A stretch of DNA of 64,000 bases. It comes from Nitrospirota bacterium (GTDB lineage Bacteria > Nitrospirota > UBA9217). The notes under the pieces were generated by a model that saw only the letters and a program-made list of their open reading frames with translations, was not told where the DNA came from and searched no databases. The stretch is from positions 256,001 through 320,000 of the forward strand of contig CAWBNQ010000003.1 of assembly GCA_963790205.1 (NCBI GenBank), in the 5' to 3' direction. Both the position numbers and the translations under genes were made by a program. The first letter of the stretch is position 1; each line of letters begins with the position of its first letter. Below, piece by piece: positions 39,274 to 57,986 of the stretch.

Positions 39274-39276
39274 CTT

Positions 39277-42346: not shown

Positions 42347-45300
42347 ATGTATGTAAAAAAGAACTTTATTTTTTGGCTAGCCGCGCTTGCCCTGGTCATT
42401 CCGCTTTTCATTGCGGGCACCGCCAGCGCAAAGTATATGAGCGACGGCGCCGTGCAGAACGCCACGAACGGCGGCTGGAACACGCCGAATGACATGATAT
42501 GTATCGTCGGCGTGCATACTGACGGCACGCTGGATATCGCTGACGGCGTAACGAACGCCAGGGATTGCATCTATCTCCAGACAGGAACCATGAATGGCGG
42601 GACAGCCTTCGACCTGACTGGCATGACTACGTCCGCTGCGTGTACAACCGCAGGCGGAACAGGAAACGACGGCGCGAAGCATTCCTGGGCAACCAGCTTC
42701 TGCACCAAATCCCTGAAGGGTCTGGACAGGACCCAGCAGATGTGCCAGGGCATCGGTGGCACCTGGGTAACTACCGGTAAGTGCGTTGCCTACGGCAGAC
42801 AGTTCAAGGGCCAGGATGCAAGCGGCACGCCTTTGGCCATTGGCACAAAGGGTACAACGCAAGGAGCGGGCACGGGCTATTGCTATACGACCATGAACAT
42901 GACCACATCGTATGGTACGACGACGGTTCCCGGCGGCACGACTGGCACAATATGTCCTGCTGGCAGCACGAACTCGTCGACTGCCTATGACTGGGCATAC
43001 AGCAGCAGCAAGTGCACCTATGCCAAGGGTATTGCCGGTTATTTGAACGCGGCGCTTACCAAGGCTGACGGCAGCACCTATGCCGCCAATTCTTACCTCG
43101 ATCTGAGCCTGTTCAACACGATGGGCGACTGCCTCGCGGCCGGCGCTTCGTGGGCCAACTGGACCGGCCAGGCAGCTTCGACAACTTCCATTCCCACGAC
43201 CCCGTCGGCTTCCACAATACCGGCGTGGGTTTATAACACGAACACGCCTGACGCTGACAACGGCTGCCTCCATTGCCACAGCAGCCTGACCGAGTACAAC
43301 GGCCCTGCCGAGAGAGAGAAAGACAGCTATGTCAAGACCGGCCACAAGAACATGCTGAGAGCAGTCAAAGCCGGCATGCCTTGGGCGGGTCCGGACGGCG
43401 TGGCGTACACGACCGACGGCGCCAACACCATCAACTTCATGACCACGTCCGATTCGTATGCGAAGATCACGGTGGGCGGCGTAGACCAGAACCTTTATTA
43501 TATCTACGGCGACTGGATGGCCGCGCTTCCGACAACGGTCTACGGGACGAACGGCTACTCGTCAGCCCCGACGGGATCCAACAATGGTTACACCTGCTAT
43601 GCGTGCCATGCTACAGGCGCGAGTGACAGTTCCGGTCCCGTCCCCGGCGTGCAGTCGATCGGCACTTCCGGATACGCCGGGATTGAGCCGCAGGCCACGT
43701 TCCCGGGAATCAGTTTTGCTAATAACCCGAAATGGGACTTGGACGGCATTCAGTGTTCACGGTGCCATAATGCGACGGTCGCGCCGATATCTGCGACACA
43801 GATCGCGGCATCCAGCTTCAAGACCACCGCTCCCACCAGCGGAGGCATGGGCGCGCTTGCTTCAGGCACCGGCAGGAACAACCTCTGCTTCGGCTGCCAC
43901 CAGAGCATCGACAAGGCCTGGCCGGCCGGCACAGCGCAGTACGATCCCACGAAGATCCCGGTCGGCGTAAGCCACGGGGCGCAGTATGGACGTGAATTCA
44001 ACGGCCATGTGCTGGGCAACTCCTTCCTGAACAGCGTGCACGCAGAGTACGCGGGCGCCCAGAGCGGCAACGGATCGATCACGTTGAACGCCCTCGGGAA
44101 GTACGATCTGACCGACCCCAACGGGACCTCAGAGTACGGCAGCTCCTTCCAGGGCTTCACCTGCTGGCAGTCGTCCACCGGCAACAGCCCGGCGAAGACC
44201 AAGGCTGACGGCACGGAAATAAAGACCAAGTCAGACTGCGAAACCCTCTACGGTGCAGGGACGTGGAGAGCAGACGCCTCCGGCGATCTGGGTACCGTGC
44301 AGGGCTCCTGCAGCACCTGCCACGACGTTCATAACAGTCTCTTTGTCGCTTCTCAGAAAGAAGCGGCAATGAGAAAGACGTGCGAGGATTGCCATGTTAA
44401 CAACGCCACGACCGGCGCGACCATCAGCTCCGTTCCGACGGCGTCGGTCATACGCCATCCGTCGGGCTCGGGCACGCCGTTCGATGCTGCCAAATATGAC
44501 AGTGCGTGCGTGGTCTGCCATATGGCCTCGCAGGCAGAGGAGAACGGGGACCAGGTTTCCATGCCGGTGCATGTCTGGAGGATCAACACCAACGCATCCT
44601 ACAACACGTTCCCGACCATGGCCCAGTTCTACGGCGGGTCCTGCAGCGTACACACCGGCCCGGTCCAGAATGCTCCCAGCAAGCCGGTTGTCTACCTGTC
44701 CGACGTCGCTGCCGCTAATTCGTCGTGTACCGCCGCAGGCACCCCTTCCGTGTGCTGCACGGGTAATAAGACGGGAACCTGCGTTGATGCGTCCAATTGC
44801 ACTGCGGCTTCCGGCACCTGGACTGCTGCGACAAAGAACAGATCAGCTCAAACCGCGCCTGATGGTTCTTACACGAACGCGGTCTGGGTCGATCTCGACC
44901 TCGCGTGCGGCCAGTGCCATGGCGGCTCGCTCGGCACCAGCGCAACGCACAACGGAGCGCTGTATATCTCCAAGGCGGCGCTTGCCGCGGCTGCAACCGG
45001 CATGCACAGCGCCGGCGTAGTGAGCCAGCCGACGGCCAGCACTCCCGTGGTGTCGCATGGCACGGTTACCGTGACCGCCTGGACGGTAAGCTTCGCCGAC
45101 ACGTCAACCTCCGGGGACGGGACCACGCCCAACGTAAATGTGAACTGGGGTGATGGAAACTACAACCACGGAGTTGCCGGCGATGTCTTCACCCATACGT
45201 ACGCGAGCACGCGGGCGAGAAGCTACACCATTAATCATGTGGCCATCAGCTCCGTGAATTCGAGGCTGGTCTCCACACCTGCAGATAGGTTCTCGGTCAA

Positions 45301-45568
45301 CGTGCCCCAGCGCTACACGATATCGGGCATCATCACGACCAGCACGGGCACCACGCCGATGGCGAACGCGTATGTGTTCCTGAAGGCGGGCACCCGCACG
45401 GTGCAGTACCATAAGACGGACGCGACCGGTACCTTCAGCTTCTCGAAAGTTCTTCCGGGCAACTACGCGGTCCATGTGTACAAGTTCGGGACCACCTTCG
45501 GGACCGACGCCACGATCAGCGGCCTGAGCTCGGATCAGTCGCTGACCATCAGCTCGATAACACCGTAA
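42347..45568 (+). CDS. Secreted octaheme cytochrome c, paralog 1 (Cys-rich N-terminus; C-terminal PKD-like and CarboxypepD_reg-like domains)
   Basis: SD AAGGAG; signal peptide ending TASA; 8 CxxCH (CLHCH, CYACH, CSRCH, CFGCH, CSTCH, CEDCH, CVVCH, CGQCH); VNWGDG..THTY; YTISG...GNYAV. Confidence 0.92.
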   Translation: MYVKKNFIFWLAALALVIPLFIAGTASAKYMSDGAVQNATNGGWNTPNDMICIVGVHTDGTLDIADGVTNARDCIYLQTGTMNGGTAFDLTGMTTSAACTTAGGTGNDGAKHSWATSFCTKSLKGLDRTQQMCQGIGGTWVTTGKCVAYGRQFKGQDASGTPLAIGTKGTTQGAGTGYCYTTMNMTTSYGTTTVPGGTTGTICPAGSTNSSTAYDWAYSSSKCTYAKGIAGYLNAALTKADGSTYAANSYLDLSLFNTMGDCLAAGASWANWTGQAASTTSIPTTPSASTIPAWVYNTNTPDADNGCLHCHSSLTEYNGPAEREKDSYVKTGHKNMLRAVKAGMPWAGPDGVAYTTDGANTINFMTTSDSYAKITVGGVDQNLYYIYGDWMAALPTTVYGTNGYSSAPTGSNNGYTCYACHATGASDSSGPVPGVQSIGTSGYAGIEPQATFPGISFANNPKWDLDGIQCSRCHNATVAPISATQIAASSFKTTAPTSGGMGALASGTGRNNLCFGCHQSIDKAWPAGTAQYDPTKIPVGVSHGAQYGREFNGHVLGNSFLNSVHAEYAGAQSGNGSITLNALGKYDLTDPNGTSEYGSSFQGFTCWQSSTGNSPAKTKADGTEIKTKSDCETLYGAGTWRADASGDLGTVQGSCSTCHDVHNSLFVASQKEAAMRKTCEDCHVNNATTGATISSVPTASVIRHPSGSGTPFDAAKYDSACVVCHMASQAEENGDQVSMPVHVWRINTNASYNTFPTMAQFYGGSCSVHTGPVQNAPSKPVVYLSDVAAANSSCTAAGTPSVCCTGNKTGTCVDASNCTAASGTWTAATKNRSAQTAPDGSYTNAVWVDLDLACGQCHGGSLGTSATHNGALYISKAALAAAATGMHSAGVVSQPTASTPVVSHGTVTVTAWTVSFADTSTSGDGTTPNVNVNWGDGNYNHGVAGDVFTHTYASTRARSYTINHVAISSVNSRLVSTPADRFSVNVPQRYTISGIITTSTGTTPMANAYVFLKAGTRTVQYHKTDATGTFSFSKVLPGNYAVHVYKFGTTFGTDATISGLSSDQSLTISSITP

Positions 45569-45592
45569 GAAGCACCATCTTCACCGCATCAA

Positions 45593-45631
45593 ACAGGCAG
45601 GCGGGTTTCTCCCGCCTGCCTGTTCTTTTTT
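45593..45631 (+). terminator. Intrinsic terminator after paralog 1 (also at 53378-53416 and 58012-58049)
   Basis: ACAGGCAGGCGGG-tttct-CCCGCCTGCCTGT-TCTTTTTT. Confidence 0.9.
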
Positions 45632-45668
45632 CAACGGACCTCCCCGCGGCTAAAGCGCGGACTTGTGC

Positions 45669-45697
45669 TTGCGAAGCCCGCGAGGGAAGGATATAAT
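45669..45697 (+). promoter_or_regulatory. Sigma70-type promoter of the SurA-like gene (duplicated at 53454-53482)
   Basis: TTGCGA-N17-TATAAT. Confidence 0.6.
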
Positions 45698-45729
45698 TCA
45701 AGGGAACGACGATAGAAAGAGGAGCTGGA

Positions 45730-46473
45730 ATGAGAAAACGCACACTCGTAACGATCATACTGGTATTTTTGGTCTCGCACCTGGCGCTCGTCTCGTGCAA
45801 AAAAACGGAGACCGCGGGCGTAGCGCCGTCAGCGGAGGAAGCGCACCGGACGGCGATGCTGGAAAAAAGCTTTGCAGAATCGAAAAAAGTGGTTGCCGCC
45901 CGGGTCAACGGAGAGGCCATTACCCTGTTCACCCTTTTTCGGGAGATGAACGCGCTTGCCCCCCGATACCTGGGCGCCGGCGGCCAGAGGACCCCGGAAC
46001 TCGACAAGAAGATCAGGAGCGAAGCGCTCGACATAGTAATCTTCGAGGAGCTGGCCGTGGAGGAGGCGAGAAAGCGCGGCATGAAGGCGGCGCCGGAAGC
46101 GATAGAGGGCGAGATAAGGAAAATAAAAGCGAGCACAGGCTCTCCAGCCGGTTTCCAGGAGTATCTCGACAAGAACGGCCTTACGGAAGGGGAACTCCGC
46201 AAGACGCTGGAGCAGGACGCCCTGTTTGAAATGATCGCCACGCAGGAGATCGACGCGAAGATAACGGTAACCGATGCGGCCCTCAGGGCGCGCTATAAAA
46301 AAGAAAAGACCGGACTGAAAGACGCCGCCCACCGGCAAATGACGTTTGAGGAGTCGAAAGGAATGCTTGAGCAGAAGGTCAGGGCCGAGGCGGCGGAAAA
46401 GAGGATGCGGGAGTGGGAAAAGGAACTGAGAAAAAACGCCCGCATCGAGCTCGTCGGGCAAAAGCGTGGTTGA
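45730..46473 (+). CDS. SurA N-terminal-domain chaperone lipoprotein, copy 1
   Basis: SD GAGGAG; lipobox LVSC; AARVNGEAIT, FEELAVEEARKRG, LRKNARIE; no rotamase domain. Confidence 0.85.
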   Translation: MRKRTLVTIILVFLVSHLALVSCKKTETAGVAPSAEEAHRTAMLEKSFAESKKVVAARVNGEAITLFTLFREMNALAPRYLGAGGQRTPELDKKIRSEALDIVIFEELAVEEARKRGMKAAPEAIEGEIRKIKASTGSPAGFQEYLDKNGLTEGELRKTLEQDALFEMIATQEIDAKITVTDAALRARYKKEKTGLKDAAHRQMTFEESKGMLEQKVRAEAAEKRMREWEKELRKNARIELVGQKRG

Positions 46474-46819
46474 GCAGGGAAAATTCCTTGGACGCGGGTC
46501 CCCGCTAAAATATTCGAGCAAGGGGTTTCGCGGACGAACGCGGACCGGTCCCTTGTATCCTTAAAAAACCATTACCACCCCTCGCCTTGTTCCATTCCCC
46601 GGAGGGAAGAGACCCCGGCGCTCATCCCGGCGCCGGCTTCGGTCCCTCAAACAACGCCCCGGTAATTGCCCTTGCGGGCAGTCCCGCTCCGTGGTATGAT
46701 ACCGCACTTATCGCGCACGGGACGCGGCCGGACGGGCCGCGGAAGAGTTGACATCATTCCCGGCGGACAGGGGCCCATTTCCGCCCTTTGCCGATGAACC
46801 ACTCTGATTTTTAGTGACT

Positions 46820-48241
46820 ATGATCAATCCCTTTCCGACCATCCATCCGGTTTACCTGATCTACTTTTTCGGCGGGGCGGCCTTCCTTTTTTTGAGCTTC
46901 TCCATCGGCACAAAGAACATGCAGGGGAGCGACCTGCGGATCGCGGACAGCCTGTGGCTGCTGGCGATCTTCGGCTTTATCCATGGTCTCCGTGAGTGGC
47001 TGGAGATATACCCGCTGCTCGAGGGAGTGCATTTGGGCCGGGAGGAAATATTTGCCATAGAGCTCATTTCCTCCGCCCTGTTGATCGTCTCGTTCATGTT
47101 CCTCCTGCAGTTCGGCTTGTCGCTCTCCCTTGATACGAGGCTCAAACGGGTGAAGTGGACCGTGGGGACCTACGCCGCTCTCTGCTTTATCTGGATTTTT
47201 TTCATGGAGCTGCGCGGTTTCAGCTCTGACCTGCTGATCGTGCGGCAGGTGCAGACCGGCGCGCGGAACACCTTCGGCCTCATCGGGGGATTTGTAACCG
47301 CCTATGGAATGATCATGTATTCGTATTCCCGCGAAATAAAGAACTTACATCATTCCATTTCACGCAATCTCTCTTACGCGGGGTGGGCCTTTGCCGGTTA
47401 TGCTTTTTTGACGACTACTTTTTTCTCCCGTATCGCCGGTACCTACGCCCCCTACTCGAAGGAGATCTTCCGCGGGGGCGCGGCTGTTCTTATAGCGTAC
47501 TTTATCATCAAGGCATTGAACATTTTCGACATCGAAATGAGGAGCAAGGCCGGGGACCAGGCGAGACGGCTTGTGCAGTCCGAGAAGCTGGCTTCGCTGG
47601 GGCAGCTCGCCGCGGGCATCGCCCATGAGATAAACAATCCATTGACCAACGCGTCCCTGGGGATCCAGTTGCTCAGGAAGCGGCTGGGCGATCCCGGGCG
47701 GGCGATCGTGGAACAGATCAAGGCCGTGGAGAAGAACATAGACCGCGCGGCCGCGATCGCGCAGGAGCTCCTGCAGTTCTCCCGCCGGCAAGACATGGAG
47801 TTTCTTGCCCTGAATATCAACGAGGTCATCGTCAACGCTCTTACGATGATGAAACATAGACTGGACAGGGTCGTCATTACGCAGGACCTGGCGCCGCTCC
47901 CCGCGGTCATGGGGGACCGGGGAAAGCTCGAGCAGGTCTTCATCAATATCCTGTCCAATGCACTGGAGGCCATGCCGGAAGGCGGCAGGCTTTCGATCTC
48001 CACCGTAGTGCGGGAGGGCATGATCGAAGCCCGCATCGCGGATACGGGGACCGGGATAGCACAAGAGAACGTATCGAGGGTCTTTGATCCTTTTTTCACG
48101 ACGAAAGAGGTCGGTTCGGGGACCGGACTCGGCCTTTACATATGCTACGGCATCATCAAACAGCATCACGGGCTCATAGAGCTTTCCAGCGCCCCCGGGC
48201 AGGGCGCCACGGTCACCGTGAAAATTCCAGCCAGGGAGTGA
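46820..48241 (+). CDS. Sensor histidine kinase with multi-TM N-terminal sensor (start 46814-46823)
   Basis: About 6-7 TMs with FGFIHGLREW; SEKLASLGQLAAGIAHEINNPL; NILSNA, DTGTGI, FFTTKEVGSGTGLGL. Confidence 0.92.
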   Translation: MINPFPTIHPVYLIYFFGGAAFLFLSFSIGTKNMQGSDLRIADSLWLLAIFGFIHGLREWLEIYPLLEGVHLGREEIFAIELISSALLIVSFMFLLQFGLSLSLDTRLKRVKWTVGTYAALCFIWIFFMELRGFSSDLLIVRQVQTGARNTFGLIGGFVTAYGMIMYSYSREIKNLHHSISRNLSYAGWAFAGYAFLTTTFFSRIAGTYAPYSKEIFRGGAAVLIAYFIIKALNIFDIEMRSKAGDQARRLVQSEKLASLGQLAAGIAHEINNPLTNASLGIQLLRKRLGDPGRAIVEQIKAVEKNIDRAAAIAQELLQFSRRQDMEFLALNINEVIVNALTMMKHRLDRVVITQDLAPLPAVMGDRGKLEQVFINILSNALEAMPEGGRLSISTVVREGMIEARIADTGTGIAQENVSRVFDPFFTTKEVGSGTGLGLYICYGIIKQHHGLIELSSAPGQGATVTVKIPARE

Positions 48242-48242
48242 T

Positions 48243-48893
48243 ATGACAAAGGTACTGATCGTAGACGACGAAAAAGAGTTCAGGACGTACCTCTCGGAGG
48301 CCGTGAGCGCGGCGGGGTACGAGGTGCAGCAGGCGTCCTCCGGCAGGGAGGCGGTCGACAAGGCGGCTGACGAGGATTTTGACGTGGTCCTGCTCGACCT
48401 GATCATGCCCAAAATGAGCGGCTCCGATGTCCTCGTCGAACTCAGAAGGGTGAGCCCGCGGTCGAGGGTCATCATGATCACGGCCTTTGCGAGCATAGAG
48501 AATGCGGTGGACGCCATAAAACGGGGGGCCACCGATTACCTGTCCAAGCCCTTTAAGATCGATGAGCTTCTGATGCGCATGAAGCGCGCTCTCGAAGAGG
48601 CGCGGGTCGAGCTCGGCACGGAGAAGGGGGATTTCGACGGCATCCTGGGCTCTCTGTCCAACCCCATCAGAAGGGCGATCATCCAGATGATATCGCTCAG
48701 AAACACCATGCGCCTCATGGACCTCGTCAGAGAGCTGAATATCTCCGATCATACGAAGGTGCTCTTTCATCTGAAAATGCTGAAGGAGGCGGGGGTCCTG
48801 GAACAGGGCCCGGATAAAGCCTATTTCCTCGCCAATCAGGGGAAAAAGACCCTTGCCTGTCTCCAGGTCCTCGAAAAACACCTCCTGGAATGA
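48243..48893 (+). CDS. Response regulator, REC plus ArsR-like winged HTH
   Basis: IVDDE, LDLIMP, KPF; C-terminal LSNPIRRAII..VLFHLKMLKEAG. Confidence 0.88.
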   Translation: MTKVLIVDDEKEFRTYLSEAVSAAGYEVQQASSGREAVDKAADEDFDVVLLDLIMPKMSGSDVLVELRRVSPRSRVIMITAFASIENAVDAIKRGATDYLSKPFKIDELLMRMKRALEEARVELGTEKGDFDGILGSLSNPIRRAIIQMISLRNTMRLMDLVRELNISDHTKVLFHLKMLKEAGVLEQGPDKAYFLANQGKKTLACLQVLEKHLLE

Positions 48894-49118: not shown

Positions 49119-49778
49119 ATGAAAAAAATCCTTATCATAGACGATGATGTTGAGTTCAGCGCGCTCCTTGCGCGGGTCGTGGCCGAAGCGGGGTATCAAT
49201 ACGACGTGGCAGCCTCATGCAGAGAGGCCCTGGAAAAGGCGGCCGCCGGAGACCACGATCTGGTCCTGCTCGACATGATCATGCCCGGGGGGAGCGGCGC
49301 CGACTGCCTGGCGGAACTGAGAACCAAGGACCCCCGGCTGAAGATAATCGTGGTCACCGCCTTCGCGACCATCCAGAACGCGGTGGAGGTCATAAAAAAA
49401 GGCGCGAGCGATTATCTGGCGAAACCCTTTAAAATAGAGGAGCTTCTGCGGGCCGTCCGGCGGGTGCTCGAGGAAGCGAGTTTTGAGAAACTGGGAGACA
49501 AGAAGGACTTCCACGGCATCCTGAGCTCCCTGGCCAACCCCGTCAGGTCGGAGATCATCCGGCTGCTTCACGCGAGAAAGAACGCGAGGCTCAGGGAGAT
49601 CGCGGAAGGGCTCGACCTGACGGACCGCGCCAAAGTGCTTTTTCATCTGAAAAAATTGCAGGACTCCGGCCTCGTGCAATACGATAAAGACCATACCTAT
49701 TCGCTCACGATCGTGGGCGACATATCCCTCGAATGCCTGAAGGTCATGGAAACCCACCTTTTTTCAGGCTTCAAATAA
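49119..49778 (+). CDS. Response regulator, REC plus ArsR-like winged HTH (paralog)
   Basis: IIDDD, LDMIMP, KPF; LANPVRSEII..VLFHLKKLQDSG. Confidence 0.88.
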   Translation: MKKILIIDDDVEFSALLARVVAEAGYQYDVAASCREALEKAAAGDHDLVLLDMIMPGGSGADCLAELRTKDPRLKIIVVTAFATIQNAVEVIKKGASDYLAKPFKIEELLRAVRRVLEEASFEKLGDKKDFHGILSSLANPVRSEIIRLLHARKNARLREIAEGLDLTDRAKVLFHLKKLQDSGLVQYDKDHTYSLTIVGDISLECLKVMETHLFSGFK

Positions 49779-49948: not shown

Positions 49949-49964
49949 TGGCACTGCAAATGCA
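49949..49964 (+). promoter_or_regulatory. Sigma54 promoter of octaheme cytochrome 2
   Basis: TGGCACTGCAAATGCA. Confidence 0.72.
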
Positions 49965-49981: not shown

Positions 49982-50173
49982 AAATGATGCCACAGTCCTT
50001 CCCCCGATTGATGTGGCTTTCATTTTGTTTATGGCAGGCTGAGACAAGAAGTACACAGCAGTAGTTATCAGGCCGGTATGAATCAGGATGAATCAGGCCT
50101 GATACACCCTGCTCCTGCGAAAACGCGGGCGCAGGCAAGGTTTAAAAACCTAAAAATCAAAAGGAGAAGCAAC
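49982..50173 (+). ncRNA. Candidate structured 5' leader (copy 2)
   Basis: Same first stem as 42141; second stem TATCAGGCC...GGCCTGATA; third stem CCTGCTCCTGCG-aaaa-CGCGGGCGCAGG. Confidence 0.45.
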
Positions 50174-53100
50174 ATGTATGTAAAAAAGAACTTTATGTTG
50201 TGGCTAGCCGTGCTTGCCCTGGCCCTTCCGCTTTTCGTTGCGGGCACCGCCAGCGCAAAGTACATGCAAGACGGCGCCGTGCAGAGCGCCTCATCCGGCG
50301 GCTGGGTCACGCCGTCTGACGGCGTCTGCGTGCTCGGCTTGCATGCCGACGGCACCATGGACGTTGATTTATCGATCACGAACAAAAGGGACTGCGACGC
50401 CAGGCTTATTACCGGCCTGACCGGCACCTGTTCCGACCCTGCTTCCTCGGGAGACGGGGCGGCGCATGCCAATGCCGGCTCCAGCACCTGCGTGACCGTG
50501 AATGCCAGCAAGATCATCACGGGCACGATATCCTTGAAGAACCTGGACAGAGACGCCCAGATGTGCACCGGCAAGGGCGGCGTCCTTGCGAACGTCTCCG
50601 CTTCTGTTGACCAGACCCAGTTCATAACGGGTAATGGCTGCGTAGCCTACGGCTGGCAGTACAGGGGACAGGATGCGAGCGGCGCACCCCTGGCCATCGG
50701 CGCAAAAGGCGCGGTCCAGGGCCCGGCCGGCTTCTGCTCGGCTTACATGAGCACGGGCATTGCCGCGGCAAGCTGCCCGTCTCTGAGCGCAAACTCGACG
50801 ACAGCCTTCGGCTACGTCGTACACGGCGCTCTGTGTGACTATCAGTTCGGTATCACGGGCACTGTGGACCAGAACAACAGCAGAGGCTCCTGGTCCAACT
50901 ACAAAAATATCAGCGGTGCGTCAGTTACATCCGGTACGGCGGAAGATCTGAGCACAATCACCACCATGGGCGATTGTCTCGCAGCCGGCTATAACTGGAA
51001 CTCCTGGGTACCCTATGGTACGACCGCAGCGGTCGGCAGTATTACGACCGCAGCGACCTTCGACCTCACCAAGGTGGCTGTGAGCTCTGATGATGGCTGC
51101 CTCCACTGCCACAGCGCGGCCGGCGCCCAGTATAACGGCCCTGCCGAGAGATTCAAGGACAGCTATGTACAGACCGGCCACAAGAACATGCTGAGAGCGG
51201 TCAAGGCAGGCTATCCCTGGGCTGGTCCGACCGGGGCAATCTACACGACCGACGGCACCAACACCATCAACTTCATGACCACCTCCGATCCGTATGGGAA
51301 GATCACGGTGGGCGGCGTGGACCAGAATCTTTATTATGTCTACGGCGACTGGATGGCCGTGCTTCCGAGCGTAGTATACGGCAAAACCGGCTACGGGACC
51401 GCTCCTAACGGGACCACTGCCGACAACAACGGCTACTCCTGCTACCCGTGCCATGCAACGGGCTCGAGCGACAGTTCTGCTGTCACTAATCTTGGCACCA
51501 TCAATGCCACAGGCGTTCCCGGCGTGCAGTCGATCGGCACTCCCGGATATGCCGGTCAGGAACCCGCTGCCACGTTCCCGAACCTTCTCGTCAATGCAAA
51601 TAACCCGAAATGGGACCTGAACGGCATTAATTGTTCACGGTGCCATAACGCAACCGTTCCGTCGGTAACTTCGACGCAGATTGCGGCATCAAATTACCCG
51701 ACAACCGCTCCTACCTCCGGCGGCATGGGCGCGCTTGCTTCAGGCACCGGCAGGACGAACCTCTGCTTCGGCTGCCACCAGAGCATCGACAAAGTCTGGC
51801 CGGCAGGCACGAGCAAAACCACCGATCCCACGTCGATCGCGACCGGCGTAAGCCACGGGGCGGCTTATGGACGTGACTTCAACGGCCACGTTCTCGGCAA
51901 CTCGTTCCTGAACAGCGTGCACGCAGAGTACACCGGCACCATGACGGTGAACTCCCTGGGGAATATGGATCTTTCCGACCCCAACGGGACCTCAGAGTAC
52001 GGAAGCTCCTTCCAGGGCTTCACCTGCTGGCAAGGGACCGCCAGCAACAGCCCGGCGAAGACCAAGGCTGACGGCACTGAAATAAAGACCAAGTCAGACT
52101 GCGAAACACTGTACGGCGCAGGCTCGTGGAGAGCAGACGACGGCACTGTTGCAGACGGAGTGCAGGGCGGATGCAGCACCTGCCACGACGTTCATAACAG
52201 CCTCTTTGTCGCTTCCCAGAAGGAAGCGGCCATGAGAAAGACATGCGATGATTGCCATGTCAACAACGCCACGACCGGCGCGACCATCAGCTCCGCTCCG
52301 ACGGTGTCGGTAATACACCATCCGTCGGGCTCGGGCACGCCTTTCGATTCGACCAAGTTTGACAGTGCGTGCGTGGTTTGCCATATGGCCTCGCAGGCAG
52401 AGGAGAACGGCAATCAGAATTCCATGCCGGTGCATGTCTGGAGGATCAACACCAACGCCTCCTACAACACGTTCCCGACCATGGCCCAGTTCTACGGCGG
52501 GTCCTGCAGCGTGCATACCGGCGCTGTCCAGAATGGTCTCAGCGCGCCGACTGTCTACCTGTCCGACATCTCTTCGGCCAATTGTACGACCACGGGCGTT
52601 GGCGGCACCTGGACCGCTGCGACAAAGACCAGATCAGCTCAAACCGCGCCTGACGGCACTTACACGAACGCGGTCTGGGTCGACCTCGACCTCGCGTGCG
52701 GCCAGTGCCACGGCGGCTCGATCGGCACCACAACATACAACGGAGCGCCGTACATCTCCAAGACGGCGCTTGCCGCGGCTGCAACCGGCATGCACATCGC
52801 CGGCGTAGTGAGCCAGCCGACGGCCAGCACTCCAGTGGTGTCGCATGGCACGGTTACCGTGACCGCCTGGACGGTAAGCTTCGTCGACACGTCAACCTCC
52901 GGGGACGGGACCACGCCCAACGTAAATGTGAACTGGGGTGATGGAAGCTACAACCAGGGAGTTGCCGGCGGTGTCTTCACCCATACGTACGCGAGCACGC
53001 GGGCGAGAAGCTACACCATTAATCATGTAGCCATCAGCTCCGTGAATCCGAGACTGACCTCCACGGCGGATAGGTTCTCGGTCAACGTGCCCCAGCGCTA

Positions 53101-53353
53101 CACGGTATCGGGTATCGTCACGATCAGTGACGGCACCACGCCTATGGCGAACGCATATGTGTTCCTGAAGGCGGGCACCCGCACGGTGCAGTACCATAAG
53201 ACGGACGCGACCGGTACCTTCAGCTTCTCGAAAGTTCTTCCGGGCAACTACGCGGTCCATGTGTACAAGTTCGGGACCACCTTCGGGACCGACGCCACGA
53301 TCAGCGGCCTGAGCTCGGATCAGTCGCTGACCATCAGCTCGATAACACCGTAA
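50174..53353 (+). CDS. Secreted octaheme cytochrome c, paralog 2
   Basis: SD AAGGAG, MYVKKNF start as in paralog 1; 8 CxxCH (CLHCH, CYPCH, CSRCH, CFGCH, CSTCH, CDDCH, CVVCH, CGQCH); same C-terminal domains. Confidence 0.92.
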   Translation: MYVKKNFMLWLAVLALALPLFVAGTASAKYMQDGAVQSASSGGWVTPSDGVCVLGLHADGTMDVDLSITNKRDCDARLITGLTGTCSDPASSGDGAAHANAGSSTCVTVNASKIITGTISLKNLDRDAQMCTGKGGVLANVSASVDQTQFITGNGCVAYGWQYRGQDASGAPLAIGAKGAVQGPAGFCSAYMSTGIAAASCPSLSANSTTAFGYVVHGALCDYQFGITGTVDQNNSRGSWSNYKNISGASVTSGTAEDLSTITTMGDCLAAGYNWNSWVPYGTTAAVGSITTAATFDLTKVAVSSDDGCLHCHSAAGAQYNGPAERFKDSYVQTGHKNMLRAVKAGYPWAGPTGAIYTTDGTNTINFMTTSDPYGKITVGGVDQNLYYVYGDWMAVLPSVVYGKTGYGTAPNGTTADNNGYSCYPCHATGSSDSSAVTNLGTINATGVPGVQSIGTPGYAGQEPAATFPNLLVNANNPKWDLNGINCSRCHNATVPSVTSTQIAASNYPTTAPTSGGMGALASGTGRTNLCFGCHQSIDKVWPAGTSKTTDPTSIATGVSHGAAYGRDFNGHVLGNSFLNSVHAEYTGTMTVNSLGNMDLSDPNGTSEYGSSFQGFTCWQGTASNSPAKTKADGTEIKTKSDCETLYGAGSWRADDGTVADGVQGGCSTCHDVHNSLFVASQKEAAMRKTCDDCHVNNATTGATISSAPTVSVIHHPSGSGTPFDSTKFDSACVVCHMASQAEENGNQNSMPVHVWRINTNASYNTFPTMAQFYGGSCSVHTGAVQNGLSAPTVYLSDISSANCTTTGVGGTWTAATKTRSAQTAPDGTYTNAVWVDLDLACGQCHGGSIGTTTYNGAPYISKTALAAAATGMHIAGVVSQPTASTPVVSHGTVTVTAWTVSFVDTSTSGDGTTPNVNVNWGDGSYNQGVAGGVFTHTYASTRARSYTINHVAISSVNPRLTSTADRFSVNVPQRYTVSGIVTISDGTTPMANAYVFLKAGTRTVQYHKTDATGTFSFSKVLPGNYAVHVYKFGTTFGTDATISGLSSDQSLTISSITP

Positions 53354-54245
53354 GAAGCACCATCTTCACCGCATCAAACAGGCAGGCGGGTTTCTCCCGC
53401 CTGCCTGTTCTTTTTTCAACGGACCTCCCCGCGGCTAAAGCGCGGACTTGTGCTTGCGAAGCCCGCGAGGGAAGGATATAATTCAAGGGAACGACGATAG
53501 AAAGAGGAGCTGGAATGAGAAAACGCACACTCGTAACGATCATACTGGTATTTTTGGTCTCGCACCTGGCGCTCGTCTCGTGCAAAAAAACGGAGACCGC
53601 GGGCGTAGCGCCGTCAGCGGAGGAAGCGCACCGGACGGCGATGCTGGAAAAAAGCTTTGCAGAATCGAAAAAAGTGGTTGCCGCCCGGGTCAACGGAGAG
53701 GCCATTACCCTGTTCACCCTTTTTCGGGAGATGAACGCGCTTGCCCCCCGATACCTGGGCGCCGGCGGCCAGAGGACCCCGGAACTCGACAAGAAGATCA
53801 GGAGCGAAGCGCTCGACATAGTAATCTTCGAGGAGCTGGCCGTGGAGGAGGCGAGAAAGCGCGGCATGAAGGCGGCGCCGGAAGCGATAGAGGGCGAGAT
53901 AAGGAAAATAAAAGCGAGCACAGGCTCTCCAGCCGGTTTCCAGGAGTATCTCGACAAGAACGGCCTTACGGAAGGGGAACTCCGCAAGACGCTGGAGCAG
54001 GACGCCCTGTTTGAAATGATCGCCACGCAGGAGATCGACGCGAAGATAACGGTAACCGATGCGGCCCTCAGGGCGCGCTATAAAAAAGAAAAGACCGGAC
54101 TGAAAGACGCCGCCCACCGGCAAATGACGTTTGAGGAGTCGAAAGGAATGCTTGAGCAGAAGGTCAGGGCCGAGGCGGCGGAAAAGAGGATGCGGGAGTG
54201 GGAAAAGGAACTGAGAAAAAACGCCCGCATCGAGCTCGTCGGGCA
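53156..54245 (+). repeat. ~1.09-kb direct repeat copy B
   Basis: Matches 45371-46460. Confidence 0.9.
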
Positions 54246-54264
54246 GGACCGCGGGCAGGGGTGA
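53515..54264 (+). CDS. SurA N-terminal-domain chaperone lipoprotein, copy 2
   Basis: Identical to 45730-46473 except the last few residues. Confidence 0.85.
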   Translation: MRKRTLVTIILVFLVSHLALVSCKKTETAGVAPSAEEAHRTAMLEKSFAESKKVVAARVNGEAITLFTLFREMNALAPRYLGAGGQRTPELDKKIRSEALDIVIFEELAVEEARKRGMKAAPEAIEGEIRKIKASTGSPAGFQEYLDKNGLTEGELRKTLEQDALFEMIATQEIDAKITVTDAALRARYKKEKTGLKDAAHRQMTFEESKGMLEQKVRAEAAEKRMREWEKELRKNARIELVGQDRGQG

Positions 54265-54340: not shown

Positions 54341-55141
54341 ATGAGTATTCAGCGCGCAAAAATCCCCTCCCATGCCCGGCGGTGTTTAGCGGCGATGATC
54401 GCGGCGGCTTTGTGCATCTTCACTATCGGCCTTGGTTCTTCCTGGGCCGGGCCGCCCTTCCGGACCGACGACCCGGAGCCGGTTGATCATAACCACGGGG
54501 AATTTTACGCGGCCACGCAGTATGAAAAAGACCGCGACGTTACGGCGGGAACCGCCCCTCACTTCGAGTTCAACTACGGAGTCCTGCCCGAGTTGATGTT
54601 TCACGTCATTACTCCCTTTGCATACGCCAAGCCGGAAGGAGAATCCAGACACTACGGCTACGGGGACACGGAGGTCGGGATCAAGTACCGGTTCCTGAAT
54701 AATGAGGGTTCTCATTTTATGGCCGGGACCTTTCCACTGGTGGAACTGTCCACCGGCAACAGTGATAAGGGGTTGGGTGCGGGACATACGATGTATTTTC
54801 TGCCGCTCTGGCTCCAGAAGGGGTGGGGGCCGTGGACAACCTACGGCGGCGGCGGCTTCTGGCGTAATCCGGGAGCCGGCAACAAAGACTACCGGTTTTT
54901 CGGCTGGGAAGTGCAGCGTGAAATGTCCAAGGCAGCGACACTAGGCGTGGAAGTGTTTTACAATACGAAAACCACGGAAGAGGGAACATCCCGGACCGGG
55001 TTCAATGCAGGCGCGATATTCAATTTAAGCGATGACCACCATCTGCTCTTTTCCGTTGGGCGCGACATCCATGGCGACAACCGGCTCTCGGCTTACCTCG
55101 CGTACCAGTACACCTTCGGCCCCCCGGAAGAGAAAAAGTAA
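54341..55141 (+). CDS. Putative outer-membrane beta-barrel ('transporter'-like) protein
   Basis: Signal peptide, GPPFRTDDPEP N-terminus, GYGDTEVGIKYRF, amphipathic strands ending YLAYQYTF. Confidence 0.65.
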   Translation: MSIQRAKIPSHARRCLAAMIAAALCIFTIGLGSSWAGPPFRTDDPEPVDHNHGEFYAATQYEKDRDVTAGTAPHFEFNYGVLPELMFHVITPFAYAKPEGESRHYGYGDTEVGIKYRFLNNEGSHFMAGTFPLVELSTGNSDKGLGAGHTMYFLPLWLQKGWGPWTTYGGGGFWRNPGAGNKDYRFFGWEVQREMSKAATLGVEVFYNTKTTEEGTSRTGFNAGAIFNLSDDHHLLFSVGRDIHGDNRLSAYLAYQYTFGPPEEKK

Positions 55142-55244
55142 AATCAGGACAGGACAACACGTCAGCGCAGGGATTTGAAGCATACGCCCCCCTGTTTACC
55201 TTTTCCGGGCAAATGAAAGGTAAAAAGGCGCAATAATGCCAGGT

Positions 55245-55282
55245 TGGGGTAAATGCCCCTCTGTACTGGGGCAAATGCCCCT
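55245..55282. promoter_or_regulatory. Tandem quasi-palindromic enhancer-binding-protein sites
   Basis: TGGGGTAAATGCCCCT and TGGGGCAAATGCCCCT, 22 bp apart, about 150-180 bp upstream of a sigma54 promoter. Confidence 0.6.
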
Positions 55283-55425
55283 TTGCCCGCCTTTCATTAA
55301 TATTCATAATGTATCTATAATTTAAGCTAATTTAATTGAAAGAAAATAAATTTATTATTTCATATTATTTCAGCAGGTTATTATGAGACGCTGATTTTTT
55401 AAATTTACGCATCCCGGCGCAGTCA

Positions 55426-55441
55426 TGGCATATTAATTGCA
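55426..55441 (+). promoter_or_regulatory. Sigma54 promoter of octaheme cytochrome 3
   Basis: TGGCATATTAATTGCA in an AT-rich region. Confidence 0.75.
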
Positions 55442-55517
55442 TTTTTAATTAAGACTATAATAAATAAAACTGCAGTCTGCCACATTTCACAATCTAAAAT
55501 TCAACGATGAGGTGCGC

Positions 55518-57986
55518 ATGAAAAATAAATTATTTCTGTATGTGGCAGTCCTTGTTGTTTTTACCTTCTCACTCATGTATTCCATGGATGCCGAGGCGGT
55601 GAAGGGACAGAGATACTTCGGGGATGGAGCAACGCCCGGTCCGGCCGGAGGATGGTCGTATACCAGCGCCGTTGACACCAACTGTTTTGTTTGTCACCAA
55701 CTGAACGGCACCGTTCCCGCGCCCGATAAAACAAGCTACCTGATGACAGGCCACAAGAATGTTTTGAGGAAAGCCACGCTTTTTTCCTTTTGGAACGGGC
55801 CTGACGGGCTGCCCTATGATACGGACTCGACAGGTCGCGCCATTGTCTGGAACACACTGGGACCGATATCGCTCGGCACCTCTACCACTCATCCTCCTTT
55901 GCTTGACGGTTCATGCTCGTTATCGGGGTATCCGAATCAATCCGCCTGTACATCCGCCGGAGGCACATGGACATCCTACAATGGCGGTCTCGGCAACTCG
56001 CTCTTTTACATTTATGACGGTTGGATAAATACAACAGCGGGAGCGGGGGCATACAATGACCCGACTACAAGCGTCGCCGCGCCCGGCTCTGTTTTCAATG
56101 GCGGCTCGTACTCCTGCGCGCGCTGCCATACGACCGGCATGACCCTCGACACCTCGGTCACGACGACGCGTTCTCCTGAAAAAACCTACCCAGGCATCAA
56201 CACGTATGTGAACTTCGACCCTGACGGCAACGGGCCGGCCACAACGGTCTCCTGGGCAACCGGTTTCACCACCGGTCAGGCCATGGACGGCGTTCAGTGC
56301 GAACGCTGCCATGACGCGACGCATCATTTTACCACCGGACCAACGGTTCCCACAGGGGCGGCCGCCACCGCGTTATGCGTTCAATGCCACAGACAGGAGC
56401 ATATGGTGACCTATACCAGCGGCGGAATAGGCGCGAATATTCATCCCACGCCGTTCTCCGATAACACCGTCACTCTTCCGGTTTCCGAACCGGCGTATCC
56501 GCTTCCCGCGATCGAGGTCGGCCGGCCCGACGGCAACTACGCGCCGGAATTTTTCGGATACTCGACCGGCATGGAGTTCCTGAACAGCGTTCATGGCCAG
56601 TATACGGGAAATTTTCAACAGATAAATAATCCGGCAAACTACAACAGCAGTTTTTCGTATGGGTCCTGCGATTTGGACGGATTTTCGGTATACGCTGATC
56701 AGCCCAGTTGTGAAGCAGCGGTAGGCTCGTGGACCGACGCCAGAGGGTGCATATTTAACCAGACGAATTGTACGAATGCCGGCGGCAACTGGACCGCATT
56801 GCAGGGCGGATGCACCGCCTGCCACGATGTTCACAACAGCCTCTTTGTGGCTTCCCAGAAAGCAGCGGCAATAAGAACGACATGCCAGGATTGCCATGTC
56901 AACAACGCCACGACCGAGGCGACCATCAGCACCGTTCCGACGGTTACGGTCGTTAACCATCCGAAGGACGCGGGCACGCCGTTCGATACTACCAGGTATG
57001 ACAATGCGTGCGTGGTCTGCCATATGGCCTCGCAGGCAGTGAAGAACGGCGATCGGGTTTCCATGCCGGCGCATGTCTGGAGGATCAACACGAATGCGAA
57101 TTACAACACGTTCCCGACCATGGCCCAGTTCTACGGCGGGTCCTGCAGCGTGCATACCGGCGCGGTCCAGAATGCTCCCAGCACGCCGGTCGTCTACCTG
57201 TCCGACACCTCTTCGGCCAATTGTACGGCCGCTTCCGGCGCATGGACCGCTGCGATAAAGACCGGAACCGCTCAAACCGCGCCTGACGGTTCTTACTCGA
57301 ACGCGGTCTGGGTCGACCTCGACCTCGCGTGCGGCCAGTGCCACGGCGGCTCGATCAGCACCGCAACGCACAACAACGCGCCGTATTTCACCAAGGCGGG
57401 GCTTGCCTCGGCTGCGGCCGTCATGCACTCAACCACCCCGCTGAGCCAGCCGACGGCCAGCACTCCAGTAGTGTCAAAAGGCACGGTTACCGTGACCGCC
57501 TGGACGGTAAGCTTCGCCGACGCGTCAACCTCCGGGGACGGGACCACGCCCAACGTAAATGTGAACTGGGGTGACGGAAACTATGACCTCGGAGTTGCCG
57601 GCGGCACCTTCACCCATACGTACGCGAGCACGCGGGCGAGAAGCTACACCATTAATCATGTGGCCATCAGCTCCGTGAATCCGAGACTGACCTCCACGGC
57701 AGATAGGTTCTCGGTCAACGTGCCCCAGCGCTACACGATATCGGGCATCGTCACGACCAGCACGGGCACCACGCCTATGGCGAACGCGTATGTGTTCCTG
57801 AAGGCGGGCACCCGCACGGTGCAGTACAAGAAGACGGTCTCGAACGGTCTCTTTACCTTCCCGAGCGTTCTTCCGGGCGACTACACGGTCCATGTGTACA
57901 AGTTCGGGACCACCTTCGGCGCCGACGCCGTTATCAGCGGCCTGAGCTCGGATCAGTCGCTGACCATCAGCTCGATAACACCGTAA
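55518..57986 (+). CDS. Secreted octaheme cytochrome c, paralog 3 (short N-terminus; alternative start 55512)
   Basis: Signal peptide; 8 CxxCH (CFVCH, CARCH, CERCH, CVQCH, CTACH, CQDCH, CVVCH, CGQCH); C-terminal third nearly identical to paralogs 1 and 2. Confidence 0.92.
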   Translation: MKNKLFLYVAVLVVFTFSLMYSMDAEAVKGQRYFGDGATPGPAGGWSYTSAVDTNCFVCHQLNGTVPAPDKTSYLMTGHKNVLRKATLFSFWNGPDGLPYDTDSTGRAIVWNTLGPISLGTSTTHPPLLDGSCSLSGYPNQSACTSAGGTWTSYNGGLGNSLFYIYDGWINTTAGAGAYNDPTTSVAAPGSVFNGGSYSCARCHTTGMTLDTSVTTTRSPEKTYPGINTYVNFDPDGNGPATTVSWATGFTTGQAMDGVQCERCHDATHHFTTGPTVPTGAAATALCVQCHRQEHMVTYTSGGIGANIHPTPFSDNTVTLPVSEPAYPLPAIEVGRPDGNYAPEFFGYSTGMEFLNSVHGQYTGNFQQINNPANYNSSFSYGSCDLDGFSVYADQPSCEAAVGSWTDARGCIFNQTNCTNAGGNWTALQGGCTACHDVHNSLFVASQKAAAIRTTCQDCHVNNATTEATISTVPTVTVVNHPKDAGTPFDTTRYDNACVVCHMASQAVKNGDRVSMPAHVWRINTNANYNTFPTMAQFYGGSCSVHTGAVQNAPSTPVVYLSDTSSANCTAASGAWTAAIKTGTAQTAPDGSYSNAVWVDLDLACGQCHGGSISTATHNNAPYFTKAGLASAAAVMHSTTPLSQPTASTPVVSKGTVTVTAWTVSFADASTSGDGTTPNVNVNWGDGNYDLGVAGGTFTHTYASTRARSYTINHVAISSVNPRLTSTADRFSVNVPQRYTISGIVTTSTGTTPMANAYVFLKAGTRTVQYKKTVSNGLFTFPSVLPGDYTVHVYKFGTTFGADAVISGLSSDQSLTISSITP

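Follow-up and report, generated by a model that had tools for sequence, protein, structure and literature searches.

In a 64,000-nucleotide stretch of a Nitrospirota genome (lineage UBA9217; GenBank assembly GCA_963790205.1, contig CAWBNQ010000003.1, positions 256,001 to 320,000 of the forward strand), hereafter the window, three paralogous genes encode octaheme cytochromes with signal peptides and adjoin an operon with the parts of an OmcE-type electron conduit. The octahemes are best explained as sigma-54-regulated, interchangeable, OcwA-like outer reductase heads of this conduit, docked by a shared C-terminal tail that is kept alike by gene conversion; the chances that this explanation is right are estimated to be about even. 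The three genes, and the parts of the shortest one, are located as follows (window coordinates; aa, amino acids; ORF, open reading frame).

42347..45568, plus strand: paralog 1, long form, 1073 aa; signal peptide (..GTASA, cleaved before KY), front domain of ~270 aa with 10 Cys, eight CxxCH, Pro/Thr/Ser linker, PKD and transthyretin-like tail
50174..53353, plus strand (ORF open from 50078): paralog 2, long form, 1059 aa from MYVKKNF; architecture as paralog 1
55518..57986, plus strand (ORF open from 55512): paralog 3, short form, 822 aa; front domain absent
55518-55598, plus strand: signal peptide of paralog 3
about 55599-56792, plus strand: hemes 1-4 of paralog 3
about 56793-57437, plus strand: hemes 5-8 of paralog 3
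about 57459-57731, plus strand: PKD domain of paralog 3
about 57732-57983, plus strand: transthyretin-like domain of paralog 3

The initial annotation had described three octahemes with common linker motifs, strongly differing front regions and a nearly invariant C-terminal domain pair, and all of this was recovered. The ORFs lie on the plus strand as predicted, and each product starts with a Sec-type signal peptide (AxA site) and contains exactly eight CxxCH motifs. All seven shared linker motifs occur once per protein and in the same order. CxxCK and Cx3-4CH motifs are absent, and a pattern search found no long Cx(5-20)CH heme motif in the three paralogs. The inter-heme loops are rich in paired extra Cys. 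The front of paralogs 1 and 2 (~270 aa, 10 Cys) is rich in Thr, Gly, Ala and Ser, and the first heme follows at residue 307 in paralog 1 and 309 in paralog 2 (counted from MYVKKNF), while it is already found at residue 56 in paralog 3. At the opposite end, a stretch of ~183 aa, beginning 35 residues after heme 8 and reaching the C-terminus, shows 95% identity for paralogs 1 and 2 and 86-87% for paralog 3 with either of them. The linker SQPTASTPVV is invariant in all three proteins. The module of hemes 1-4 in paralog 3 shares 34-39% identity with those of paralogs 1 and 2. The picture of a variable front and a constant tail was thus right in its modularity, with a varying N-terminal and a common C-terminal side, but not in its border: the variable part is the front plus the whole heme 1-4 module, and the constant part starts at heme 5.

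For paralog 2, a start at 50174 instead of 50078 is most likely, because the DNA upstream of it including the ribosome-binding region matches that of paralog 1 (42310-42487 vs 50138-50314) and the 1059-aa form is present in the public collection. Paralog 3 is found in the public record from 55518. The source genome holds only these three octaheme copies. The PKD-transthyretin tail is likewise carried by these three proteins only, with one further match at chance level (E 0.007), and is therefore not a genome-wide secretion tag. A C-terminal sorting domain of the type IX secretion or another genome-wide kind was dropped as a candidate given this restriction of the tail. A hematite-type [ST]P[ST] motif was also dropped (2, 1 and 0 occurrences in the three paralogs).

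As a separate observation, a Cys-Cys loop ending in C-x(2-6)-G-x-W recurs in differing inter-heme loops of the paralogs. Paralog 3 contains four of them (residues 133/144, 384/398, 411/418 and 543/569; window ~55914-57230) compared to 0.17 expected (0 of 2000 shuffles), and paralog 1 contains three (119/133, 606/631 and 812/818; 6 of 2000 shuffles). Family members have between 0 and 5. Judged from its sequence pattern, the element looks like a repeatedly inserted disulfide-stapled hairpin.

The tail had been interpreted as a PKD domain followed by a CarboxypepD_reg-like domain. Pfam calls CarboxypepD_reg (PF13620) in all three paralogs just above the cut-off (33.2-34.6 bits vs 32.3), next to the generic Paired_CXXCH_1 and Cytochrome_C7 models for the heme part. 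Pfam PKD models gave no match at E<=0.01 on the window proteins, and this half of the assignment is based on fold and family profile. The PKD signature NWGDG..THTY is present in all three paralogs, homologs in the public collection carry PF18911/PF00801, and the family profile matches the PKD domains of ColH and PrtV among PDB sequences (2.6e-13 to 1.9e-5). In a full-length structure model of paralog 3, residues 648-738 adopt a PKD fold (4l9d_A, Z 11.3, root-mean-square deviation (rmsd) 2.0, 82 aligned; 4xed_A, Z 10.0) and residues 739-822 a transthyretin/CarboxypepD-like sandwich (3e8v_A, Z 12.0; 1qmu_A, Z 11.3; 5aq0_B, Z 11.0). Both folds of the proposed pair were thus matched.

Two models were computed with AlphaFold2, both of paralog 3 and both heme-free. 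The full-length model was built from a 58-row alignment and reached a mean confidence (pLDDT) of 73, with the tail above 90. As Foldseek and the VIA-wide search returned only tail matches for the 822-aa model, a core-only model was needed; it was built from an 82-row alignment (pLDDT 78; predicted TM score 0.82). Compared with 48,161 PDB representatives in the VIA-wide search, the core gave only 16 matches at Z>=2, and the ten best were all multiheme cytochromes. The best one was OcwA (6i5b_B) with Z 8.2, rmsd 4.6, 322 aligned residues and 20% identity, followed by MccA (4rkm_A; Z 7.8, 324 aligned) and the S-layer undecaheme cytochrome of Carboxydothermus ferrireducens (6qvm_A; Z 7.6, 298 aligned). 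The fold comparison that had been suggested for the heme core thus sets these three proteins (Z 7.6-8.2) apart from the next match at Z 3.6, with ONR, c554, NrfA, IhOCC and HAO at Z 2.3-3.5. Foldseek also placed OcwA first (E 0.012, ~530 columns, probability 0.63-0.75, TM 0.24-0.32).

At the sequence level, the family profile showed weak local matches to NrfA (4e-5), NrfB (1e-4) and c554 (0.02-0.05) among PDB sequences as well as to paired-CXXCH stretches of 6r2q_A. OcwA and MccA were matched neither by phmmer nor by the family profile in the same sequences, and a single-sequence search of the PDB returned one chance-level match (E 0.68). No NCBIfam model came near its threshold for the octahemes. 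In the sequence, profile and NCBIfam searches, no full-length match of high identity to a characterised enzyme family appeared. In the ESM Atlas, the core led only to generic multiheme clusters (0.80-0.86), and the front domain had no usable match. The core is accordingly described as OcwA/MccA-like by predicted fold and not filed as a member of either family.

OcwA is a nonaheme outer cell-wall cytochrome of Thermincola potens (6I5B) and ranks first in both structure searches, with alignments over almost the full length of core and chain. It combines a tetraheme part resembling c554 with a part resembling NrfA and acts as terminal reductase at the cell surface (PMC6703420). The recombination break of the paralogs between hemes 4 and 5, described below, coincides with the junction of these two parts. 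The octahemes differ from OcwA in having eight hemes instead of nine, in lacking a sequence match and a long C-terminal helix bundle in the models, and in carrying the PKD and transthyretin tail and, in the long forms, the 10-Cys front. They also belong to a diderm host, and their genes lie beside an OmcE cluster. MccA (4RKM) shares the number of eight hemes. From MccA and the NrfA/c554/ONR/HAO superfamily, the octahemes are distinguished by their plain CxxCH motifs, by the fact that no curated model was reached, and by their other domains and gene context. A further difference concerns the helices: DSSP assigned short helices only in both models of paralog 3, the last one at core residues 599-606, and neither model contains the C-terminal three-helix bundle that is typical of NrfA, HAO and MccA (PMC6703420).

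The border between the variable and the constant part is reflected in the DNA, where the repeated unit extends beyond the octaheme genes into the following features.

45730..46473, plus strand: SurA_N-type chaperone-like lipoprotein, 247 aa, without peptidyl-prolyl isomerase domain; in the 97.5% tract, matching 53515-54264
53515..54264, plus strand: second copy of the SurA_N-type lipoprotein, 249 aa
57987..58255, plus strand: remnant 3' of paralog 3; 57987-58138 matches 45569-45717, and 58190-58255 matches 46413-46478

A tract of 1650 bp with 97.5% identity between paralogs 1 and 2 (44812-46460 vs 52603-54245) extends from just before heme 8 through the tail and the spacer and takes in the whole SurA-like gene. 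Elsewhere, the identity of these two paralogs is 81-84% in the rest of the core and 88% around the start, and the front is unalignable. Paralog 3 shows 87-89% identity with both from 56800, just before heme 5, to ~150 bp past the stop codon and is unalignable before. The short matches at 57987-58255, which flank the SurA-like gene in the first copy, indicate that the SurA-like gene of the third copy was probably deleted.

Synonymous divergence (dS) and the ratio of nonsynonymous to synonymous divergence (dN/dS) were determined among the paralogs in sliding windows by the method of Nei and Gojobori, as had been recommended, and dS collapses from heme 5 on. For paralog 3 against the others, dS is above 1 or undefined over hemes 1-4 and mostly between 0.05 and 0.33 from heme 5 to the end; one window straddling the breakpoint gave 0.50-0.91. 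In the tail region overall, dS is 0.04-0.33 compared to >1 upstream, with dN/dS values of 0.3-2.4. The front domains of paralogs 1 and 2 have diverged to saturation, yet 10 Cys are kept. Given the low dS, the unremarkable dN/dS and an identical tract that runs into the next gene, the near-invariance of the tail is attributed to recent gene conversion or recombination and not to exceptional purifying selection. By itself, the constancy of the tail does not show functional constraint.

The same pattern was found outside the window. The proteins P0006 (short) and P0020 (long), which, given equal longest-contig values in their records, presumably share a 66,452-bp metagenome contig, are 69% identical in the tail and 31% in hemes 1-4, and the paralog pair of locus L034 has 49% identity in the core and 88% in the tail. 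At a core identity of 45-60%, tails are 88% identical within a genome (n=3) and 36% between genomes (n=79). In maximum-likelihood trees, hemes 1-4 separate short from long forms with a support of 100/100. The tail tree unites the three window paralogs (98/99), P0006 with P0020 and P0007 (99/99), and the two L034 paralogs with P0026 (98/96); of these proteins, P0007 and P0026 are without genome assignment. The trees are incongruent: hemes 1-4 group by form and the tails by genome, mixing both forms, in three genomes. Sixty ORFs in 76 loci passed the signature and eight-heme filter, and as only L034 had two passing paralogs, the number of independent cases is three. Ten fragmentary or truncated sequences of the 68 were left out of the underlying alignment A2, P0005 is absent from the module-identity comparison as its first motif is not CxxCH, and P0011 is absent from the trees as it lacks the exact heme-8 signature. 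The constant tail had been proposed as a secretion, anchoring or polymerisation module. Its occurrence on three proteins only speaks against a genome-wide secretion tag; a common function in docking or anchoring stays plausible, since two other genomes show the same homogenisation within the genome.

The initial annotation had called the family uncharacterised, which agrees with the survey. A word-indexed search of public proteins yielded 68 relatives, and a profile search of 1.84 billion representatives yielded 1290 cluster representatives at E<=1e-30, some of which are PKD-repeat giants pulled in by the tail. When one genome per species was scanned, 155 of 187 candidate stretches were confirmed as relatives, and 76 loci were kept. 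Judged by their titles, nearly all of these are metagenome-assembled genomes (MAGs) or uncultured isolates of Nitrospirota, Binatia, Acidobacteriota, Verrucomicrobiia, Geobacteraceae, Myxococcales, Nitrospinae and others; the Nitrospirota loci include Thermodesulfovibrionales, Dissulfurispiraceae and a MAG from a Mn-oxidiser enrichment. The relatives are named 'PKD domain-containing protein', 'CXXCH cytochrome family protein' or 'hypothetical' only. To judge from these sequence collections, the family is large, has no curated name and resides in uncultured genomes.

The 82-row alignment shows no variation in the eight CxxCH and in six further His (79, 359, 439, 481, 519 and 637 of the 822-aa form). 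At two additional positions, His is retained in 53 and 54 rows; M503 is conserved in 81 and Y529 in all 82. Every paralog has enough other His beyond the invariant six to provide possible ligands for eight hemes. Forms with short and long fronts are both widespread: the first heme lies beyond residue 250 in 47 of the 149 signature-bearing proteins, and 24 of these 47 have exactly 10 Cys ahead of it. Variants with 11-32 hemes carry the additional ones between heme 8 and the tail. Within the phylum, seven of 61 genomes match paralog 3 (G000, G004, G005, G007, G018, G021 and G034), and the closest complete relative, G034, has one copy. Multi-paralog arrays are common in this lineage, with at least four ORFs on G007:C161, at least five on G005:C12 (597000-638000) and a further array at L034. 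DNA of the paralog 3 region (window 55400-58000) was found in metagenomes from peat (0.69 and 0.64 of words) and freshwater sediment (0.30).

The C-terminal residue was inspected in the 149 family proteins with the heme-8 signature and is Pro in 78 (TP in 39), Asn in 25 and Gln in 16. Pro ends 78 of the 134 proteins with tails of at least 150 aa compared to 0 of 15 with shorter tails, and the window paralogs end in ..LTISSITP. From this distribution, the exact C-terminal residue seems to be constrained.

Divergent from paralog 1, the following genes form the neighbouring operon.

40612..41370, minus strand: OmcE-family tetraheme cytochrome, 252 aa, signal peptide ..FAMA cleaved before G
39277..40440, minus strand: NHL beta-propeller lipoprotein
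38737..39273, minus strand: pentaheme lipoprotein
36626..38632, minus strand: 668-aa secreted protein ending in ..SRKLF, candidate large outer-membrane beta-barrel, without family or PDB match
35243..36256, minus strand: SurA-type peptidyl-prolyl isomerase lipoprotein
33909..34982, minus strand: second NHL beta-propeller lipoprotein
32096..34024, minus strand: 11-heme cytochrome with N-terminal OmcE-like module (residues ~46-243)

The start of the OmcE-like gene (MKKYISI) was set by alignment with 27 relatives, as the ORF listing had mis-sized it. Its product matches OmcE chains over the full length, namely 9yuq_N (E 6.4e-19) and 7tfs_A (E 7e-17), the latter presumably from the OmcE filament of G. 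sulfurreducens. 9YUQ is the OmcE bundle of Desulfuromonas soudanensis (PMC13712944), and the parts encoded at 32096-41370 on the minus strand equal the minimal OmcE cluster set out in the same source. The list also resembles the OmcE clusters of Desulfuromonadia and the Uet cluster of Ca. Tenderia/Gallionella, which comprise an OmcE-type tetraheme, two beta-propeller lipoproteins, a barrel candidate, undecaheme and other cytochromes and a peptidyl-prolyl isomerase (PMC13712944; bioRxiv 10.1101/2022.05.06.490989; PMC10734462). The Uet cluster was compared by its parts list alone, while the OmcE homology of the gene at 40612-41370 is confirmed by sequence. A search with the NHL protein gave 3559 relatives, with no names linking them to Tenderia. 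The descriptions of the OmcE and Uet clusters differ from the window in that they list no octaheme with a PKD/transthyretin tail.

Of the 76 related loci, 24 have an OmcE-like gene (E<=1e-20) no more than 1.5 kb away from a family gene, 20 of them with both genes on one strand. An octaheme gene opens the OmcE-type operon in 20 loci, and the typical order in linked loci is octaheme, OmcE-like, NHL, pentaheme, barrel, NHL, 11-heme and 13-heme. The combination of NHL, pentaheme and barrel genes was found in 22 of the 76 loci, and in 18 of the 45 loci with at least 20 kb. Furthermore, the seven genomes matching paralog 3 are exactly those with OmcE-like matches at E<=1e-82, compared to 2.5e-39 as best value for the other 54; as the genomes are kin, this co-occurrence is not a statistical test.

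The 11-heme cytochrome matches 7tfs_A (E 1.7e-24) and 9yuq_N (E 2.5e-19) with its N-terminal module, which is followed by seven more hemes, and OmcE-like matches inside ORFs of ~600-720 aa recur in many relatives. Its sequence makes this cytochrome a natural candidate for the 'anchor' or base subunit discussed in PMC13712944. A second OmcE-like gene in the source genome (G000:C8:219954-220733; E 1.1e-71 to the profile) has no octaheme family gene nearby.

Regulatory elements and genes around the paralogs were located at the following positions.

42111..42125, plus strand: sigma-54-type -24/-12 element with two mismatches, upstream of paralog 1
49949..49963, plus strand: sigma-54-type -24/-12 element with one mismatch, upstream of paralog 2
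55426..55440, plus strand: sigma-54-type -24/-12 element with one mismatch, upstream of paralog 3
41562..41576, minus strand: perfect sigma-54-type -24/-12 element, upstream of the OmcE-like operon
46814..48241, plus strand: membrane sensor histidine kinase
48243..48893, plus strand: response regulator with HTH_20 output domain
49119..49778, plus strand: second response regulator with HTH_20 output domain

The elements sit 90-240 bp 5' of each paralog. Across the window, the pattern is not enriched (45 matches vs 63 expected with up to two mismatches). In related loci, a site with no more than one mismatch was present in 19 of 58 windows upstream of family genes, compared to 1.3 expected from the loci's own density; of these counts, only the positional test is informative. 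The region between paralogs 1 and 2 encodes one histidine kinase and two response regulators with HTH outputs, and in many of the 76 loci the family gene is preceded by genes for histidine kinases and receiver-domain proteins. A sigma-54 activator is encoded at 23182-24630.

In the preferred explanation, the octahemes would be translocated through the outer membrane to a position at the cell surface or on the filament. Electrons would enter at the constant side of hemes 5-8 and the tail, which would contact the shared conduit or an anchor, and would leave, or enter during electron uptake, via the variable heme 1-4 module and the front domain. The additional hemes of larger relatives between heme 8 and the tail fit electron entry at that end. 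The variable side would set the preference for minerals, humic matter or partner cells. Expression would be sigma-54-dependent, and two-component systems may choose among the paralogs. In Shewanella, MtrC/OmcA on MtrAB are exchangeable outer multiheme cytochromes with paralogs, fed by a conduit through the outer membrane. The working model of the octahemes would be the same by analogy; the octahemes differ in lacking an MtrC-type match and in not being lipoproteins, and the only chain of an Mtr complex among the matches is 6r2q_A (Z 3.6 and short paired-CXXCH stretches). The octahemes had been proposed to be surface terminal reductases/oxidases or filament subunits. The former agrees with the predicted core being nearest to cell-surface reductases, but the filament role found no support, as the filament-type gene is the adjacent OmcE homolog.

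A bolder version, which is put forward tentatively and considered rather unlikely, takes the octahemes for the missing end-pieces of insulated nanowires. With a lineage-specific PKD-transthyretin tail and the common heme 5-8 half, the sigma-54-switched heads would fit a single socket, located on the OmcE-type filament, in its glycan coat or at its base. Conversion would keep the heads compatible with the socket, while hemes 1-4 and the Cys-rich front would diversify for solid or polymeric acceptors or donors. What sits at the tip of OmcE filaments is raised as an open question in PMC13712944, and according to that source the OmcE operons that it examined encode no tip-type candidate.

Several points weigh against the octahemes being outer heads of the conduit. 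The fold scores are middling (Z about 8, TM 0.24-0.32, rmsd 4.6) and come from heme-free models, best Z values of 7-8 are typical for models without a true match according to the search tool's own note, and MccA, a periplasmic enzyme, scores nearly level with OcwA. The signal peptides are of type I and have no lipobox, which bears on the translocation across the outer membrane. The intergenic spacer and the SurA-like gene have been homogenised together with the tail, so that the identity of the tails may be a by-product of recombination between tandem repeats instead of a result of selection. The conduit is absent within 10 kb in 54 of the 76 loci, some of which are on short contigs; the linkage is therefore frequent and not obligatory. 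Three of the seven genomes of the phylum (G004, G018 and G021) match paralog 3 over the heme 8/tail region only. Compared with the OmcE-like family profile, the octahemes gave only a generic 36-column paired-CXXCH match (hhalign probability 93%; BLASTP E 0.008), and nothing in this comparison points to a filament-compatible interface. Finally, no RNA runs were listed as containing DNA of window 55400-58000.

Some of these points would also be expected if the octahemes were periplasmic multiheme enzymes or carriers of the MccA/NrfA/ONR kind, acting for instance on sulfur or nitrogen oxyanions. The tail would then be a periplasmic interaction or stability module, and the linkage to OmcE would reflect shared regulation or electron supply. 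MccA as second-best structure match, NrfA, ONR, IhOCC and HAO further down the list, and the weak profile matches to NrfA and NrfB are in line with this, as are the plain Sec signal peptide without known outer-membrane sorting feature and the loci without a nearby conduit. Given that only six non-motif His are invariant for eight hemes, an open catalytic heme would be possible. Still, this alternative is considered unlikely. Exposed proteins typically have features such as the PKD/transthyretin-like tail and the numerous extra Cys pairs of the octahemes and the Thr/Gly-rich front domain with 10 Cys of their long forms. CxxCK and long Cx(5-20)CH motifs are missing, and the short helices of the models do not form the bundle described above for NrfA, HAO and MccA (PMC6703420). 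A set of three paralogs with differing fronts is more readily reconciled with varied solid or polymeric substrates than with a single small anion, and in 20 loci the octaheme leads an OmcE-type operon. Should the octahemes be periplasmic enzymes nonetheless, they would still be a new octaheme branch worth biochemical study.

A second alternative concerns the array and not the location of its products. The three copies could be a recent, largely neutral tandem expansion with redundant paralogs, in which the shared tail and hemes 5-8 are simply the recombining end of the repeat. Low dS values extend through the entire 3' tract, non-coding DNA and the following gene included, the dN/dS of the tail indicates no unusually strong purifying selection, and G034 as closest complete relative is single-copy. 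It is nevertheless deemed improbable, ranking behind the periplasmic alternative, in view of the ancient, separate clades of short and long forms (100/100), which occur together in at least three genomes, and of tails that were homogenised across the forms in each of three genomes. In addition, each paralog has retained its own sigma-54-type promoter, and the fronts have kept their 10 Cys in spite of saturated divergence.

The octahemes were finally compared with the OmcZ family (G. sulfurreducens OmcZ and archaeal OmcZ2), which shares with them an octaheme core, beta-sandwich domains after a loop, and isomerase or chaperone genes nearby (PMC13748539). The regions conserved in the OmcZ family, DGHY(V/I)P, (L/I)HNI(E/Q), GxGH(I/L)G and DCxGCH (PMC13748539), were each found by regular-expression search in 0 of 68 family proteins and in none of the three paralogs, which excludes membership in this family. 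The three conserved HH motifs are also missing: HH pairs occur in 23 of the 68 proteins at places that are not fixed, paralog 1 has none, paralogs 2 and 3 have one each at differing places, and the 82 rows contain no conserved HH column. In agreement with the earlier impression that the octahemes do not resemble OmcS or OmcZ, neither chain was retrieved in sequence or profile searches of the PDB. OmcZ is also not listed for the core model by Foldseek or VIA-wide, although absence there does not exclude a relationship.

It is hence very unlikely that the octahemes are self-polymerising nanowire subunits that mature like OmcZ, with the sandwich domains blocking polymerisation until the Pro/Thr/Ser linker is cut and the SurA-like proteins or isomerases aiding their folding: the order of eight hemes, loop and sandwich domains, of which two or three cleaved ones are predicted in full-length OmcZ (PMC13748539; PMC12307469), the invariant linker, and the SurA_N and isomerase genes flanking the paralogs, with a prolyl isomerase said to act in bacterial OmcZ folding (PMC13748539), would fit, but the OmcZ-family regions are absent, no OmcZ, OmcS or OmcE chain came up in sequence, profile or structure searches with the octahemes (the structure lists being no proof of exclusion), the window ORFs scanned include no subtilisin-like protease, and a dedicated filament-type OmcE-like gene already adjoins.

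Another known system to be considered are the clusters EET1-EET4 of peat Acidobacteriota and Verrucomicrobiota, which combine a porin, a 'scaffold' and multihemes with 8-13 hemes and 'OmcE-like' and 'OwcA-like' predicted structures, and which are expressed in peat (bioRxiv 10.64898/2026.05.27.727921). The octaheme family likewise occurs in MAGs of peat Acidobacteriota, Binatia and Verrucomicrobiia, and DNA of the window is present in peat metagenomes. The term 'PKD' is absent from the main text of the preprint; the comparison was made with its descriptions of the clusters, and the preprint may include the octaheme family.

The OmcE cluster and OcwA are already known. In the literature, no paper was found on an octaheme with PKD/CarboxypepD_reg tail, its short and long forms, the chimeric paralog 3, or the recurrent homogenisation of tails and its implication for polarity, with the reservation that the EET1-EET4 preprint may cover the family; passages of PMC9040806, PMC9769857, PMC11492766 and PMC10954620 contain nothing on it. 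Cytochrome nanowires (OmcS, OmcE, OmcZ) have been studied almost only in relatives of Geobacter. Here, a family in Nitrospirota, Binatia, Acidobacteriota and others is often encoded by the first gene of an OmcE-type operon and has a predicted core nearest to surface reductases of Gram-positive electroactive bacteria. It provides a concrete candidate for how insulated nanowires or conduits may pass electrons to the environment in organisms of peat and sediment, and the combination of a shared C-terminal half with free N-terminal modules is an evolutionary signature that marks the likely docking side.

Two further genes near the paralogs were noted.

54341..55141, plus strand: 266-aa secreted protein, borderline Phenol_MetA_deg (small outer-membrane barrel; 22.7 vs 22 bits)
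60558..61919, minus strand: 13-heme cytochrome with paired-CXXCH repeats, DmsE/GSU2203-like below the cut-offs

The latter is conserved in related clusters, and the 266-aa protein has no counterpart in the 76 related loci. Directly ahead of the conduit operon, 27976-31773 on the plus strand encodes a secreted protein of 1265 aa with several CarboxypepD_reg/SdrD_B-type sandwich repeats and no hemes, which ends in Pro and is not found near family genes in the 76 loci.

About 20 kb upstream of the paralogs, 13343-22793 on the plus strand contains a PilM/PilN/PilO-like set and genes for a TPR-secretin, a cohesin-domain protein and the F and E (ATPase) components of type II secretion. By its gene content, this set may provide the route of export for the cytochromes. 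The secretion genes are separated from the cytochrome island by genes for an IS91-family transposase and a phage-type integrase (25489-27561, minus strand). Glycosylation gene sets come after many OmcE clusters (PMC13712944). At the beginning of the window, the first 10849 positions encode glycosyltransferases (families 1, 2 and 4), a polysaccharide deacetylase, an epimerase, a flippase-type exporter, a methyltransferase and a TPR protein.

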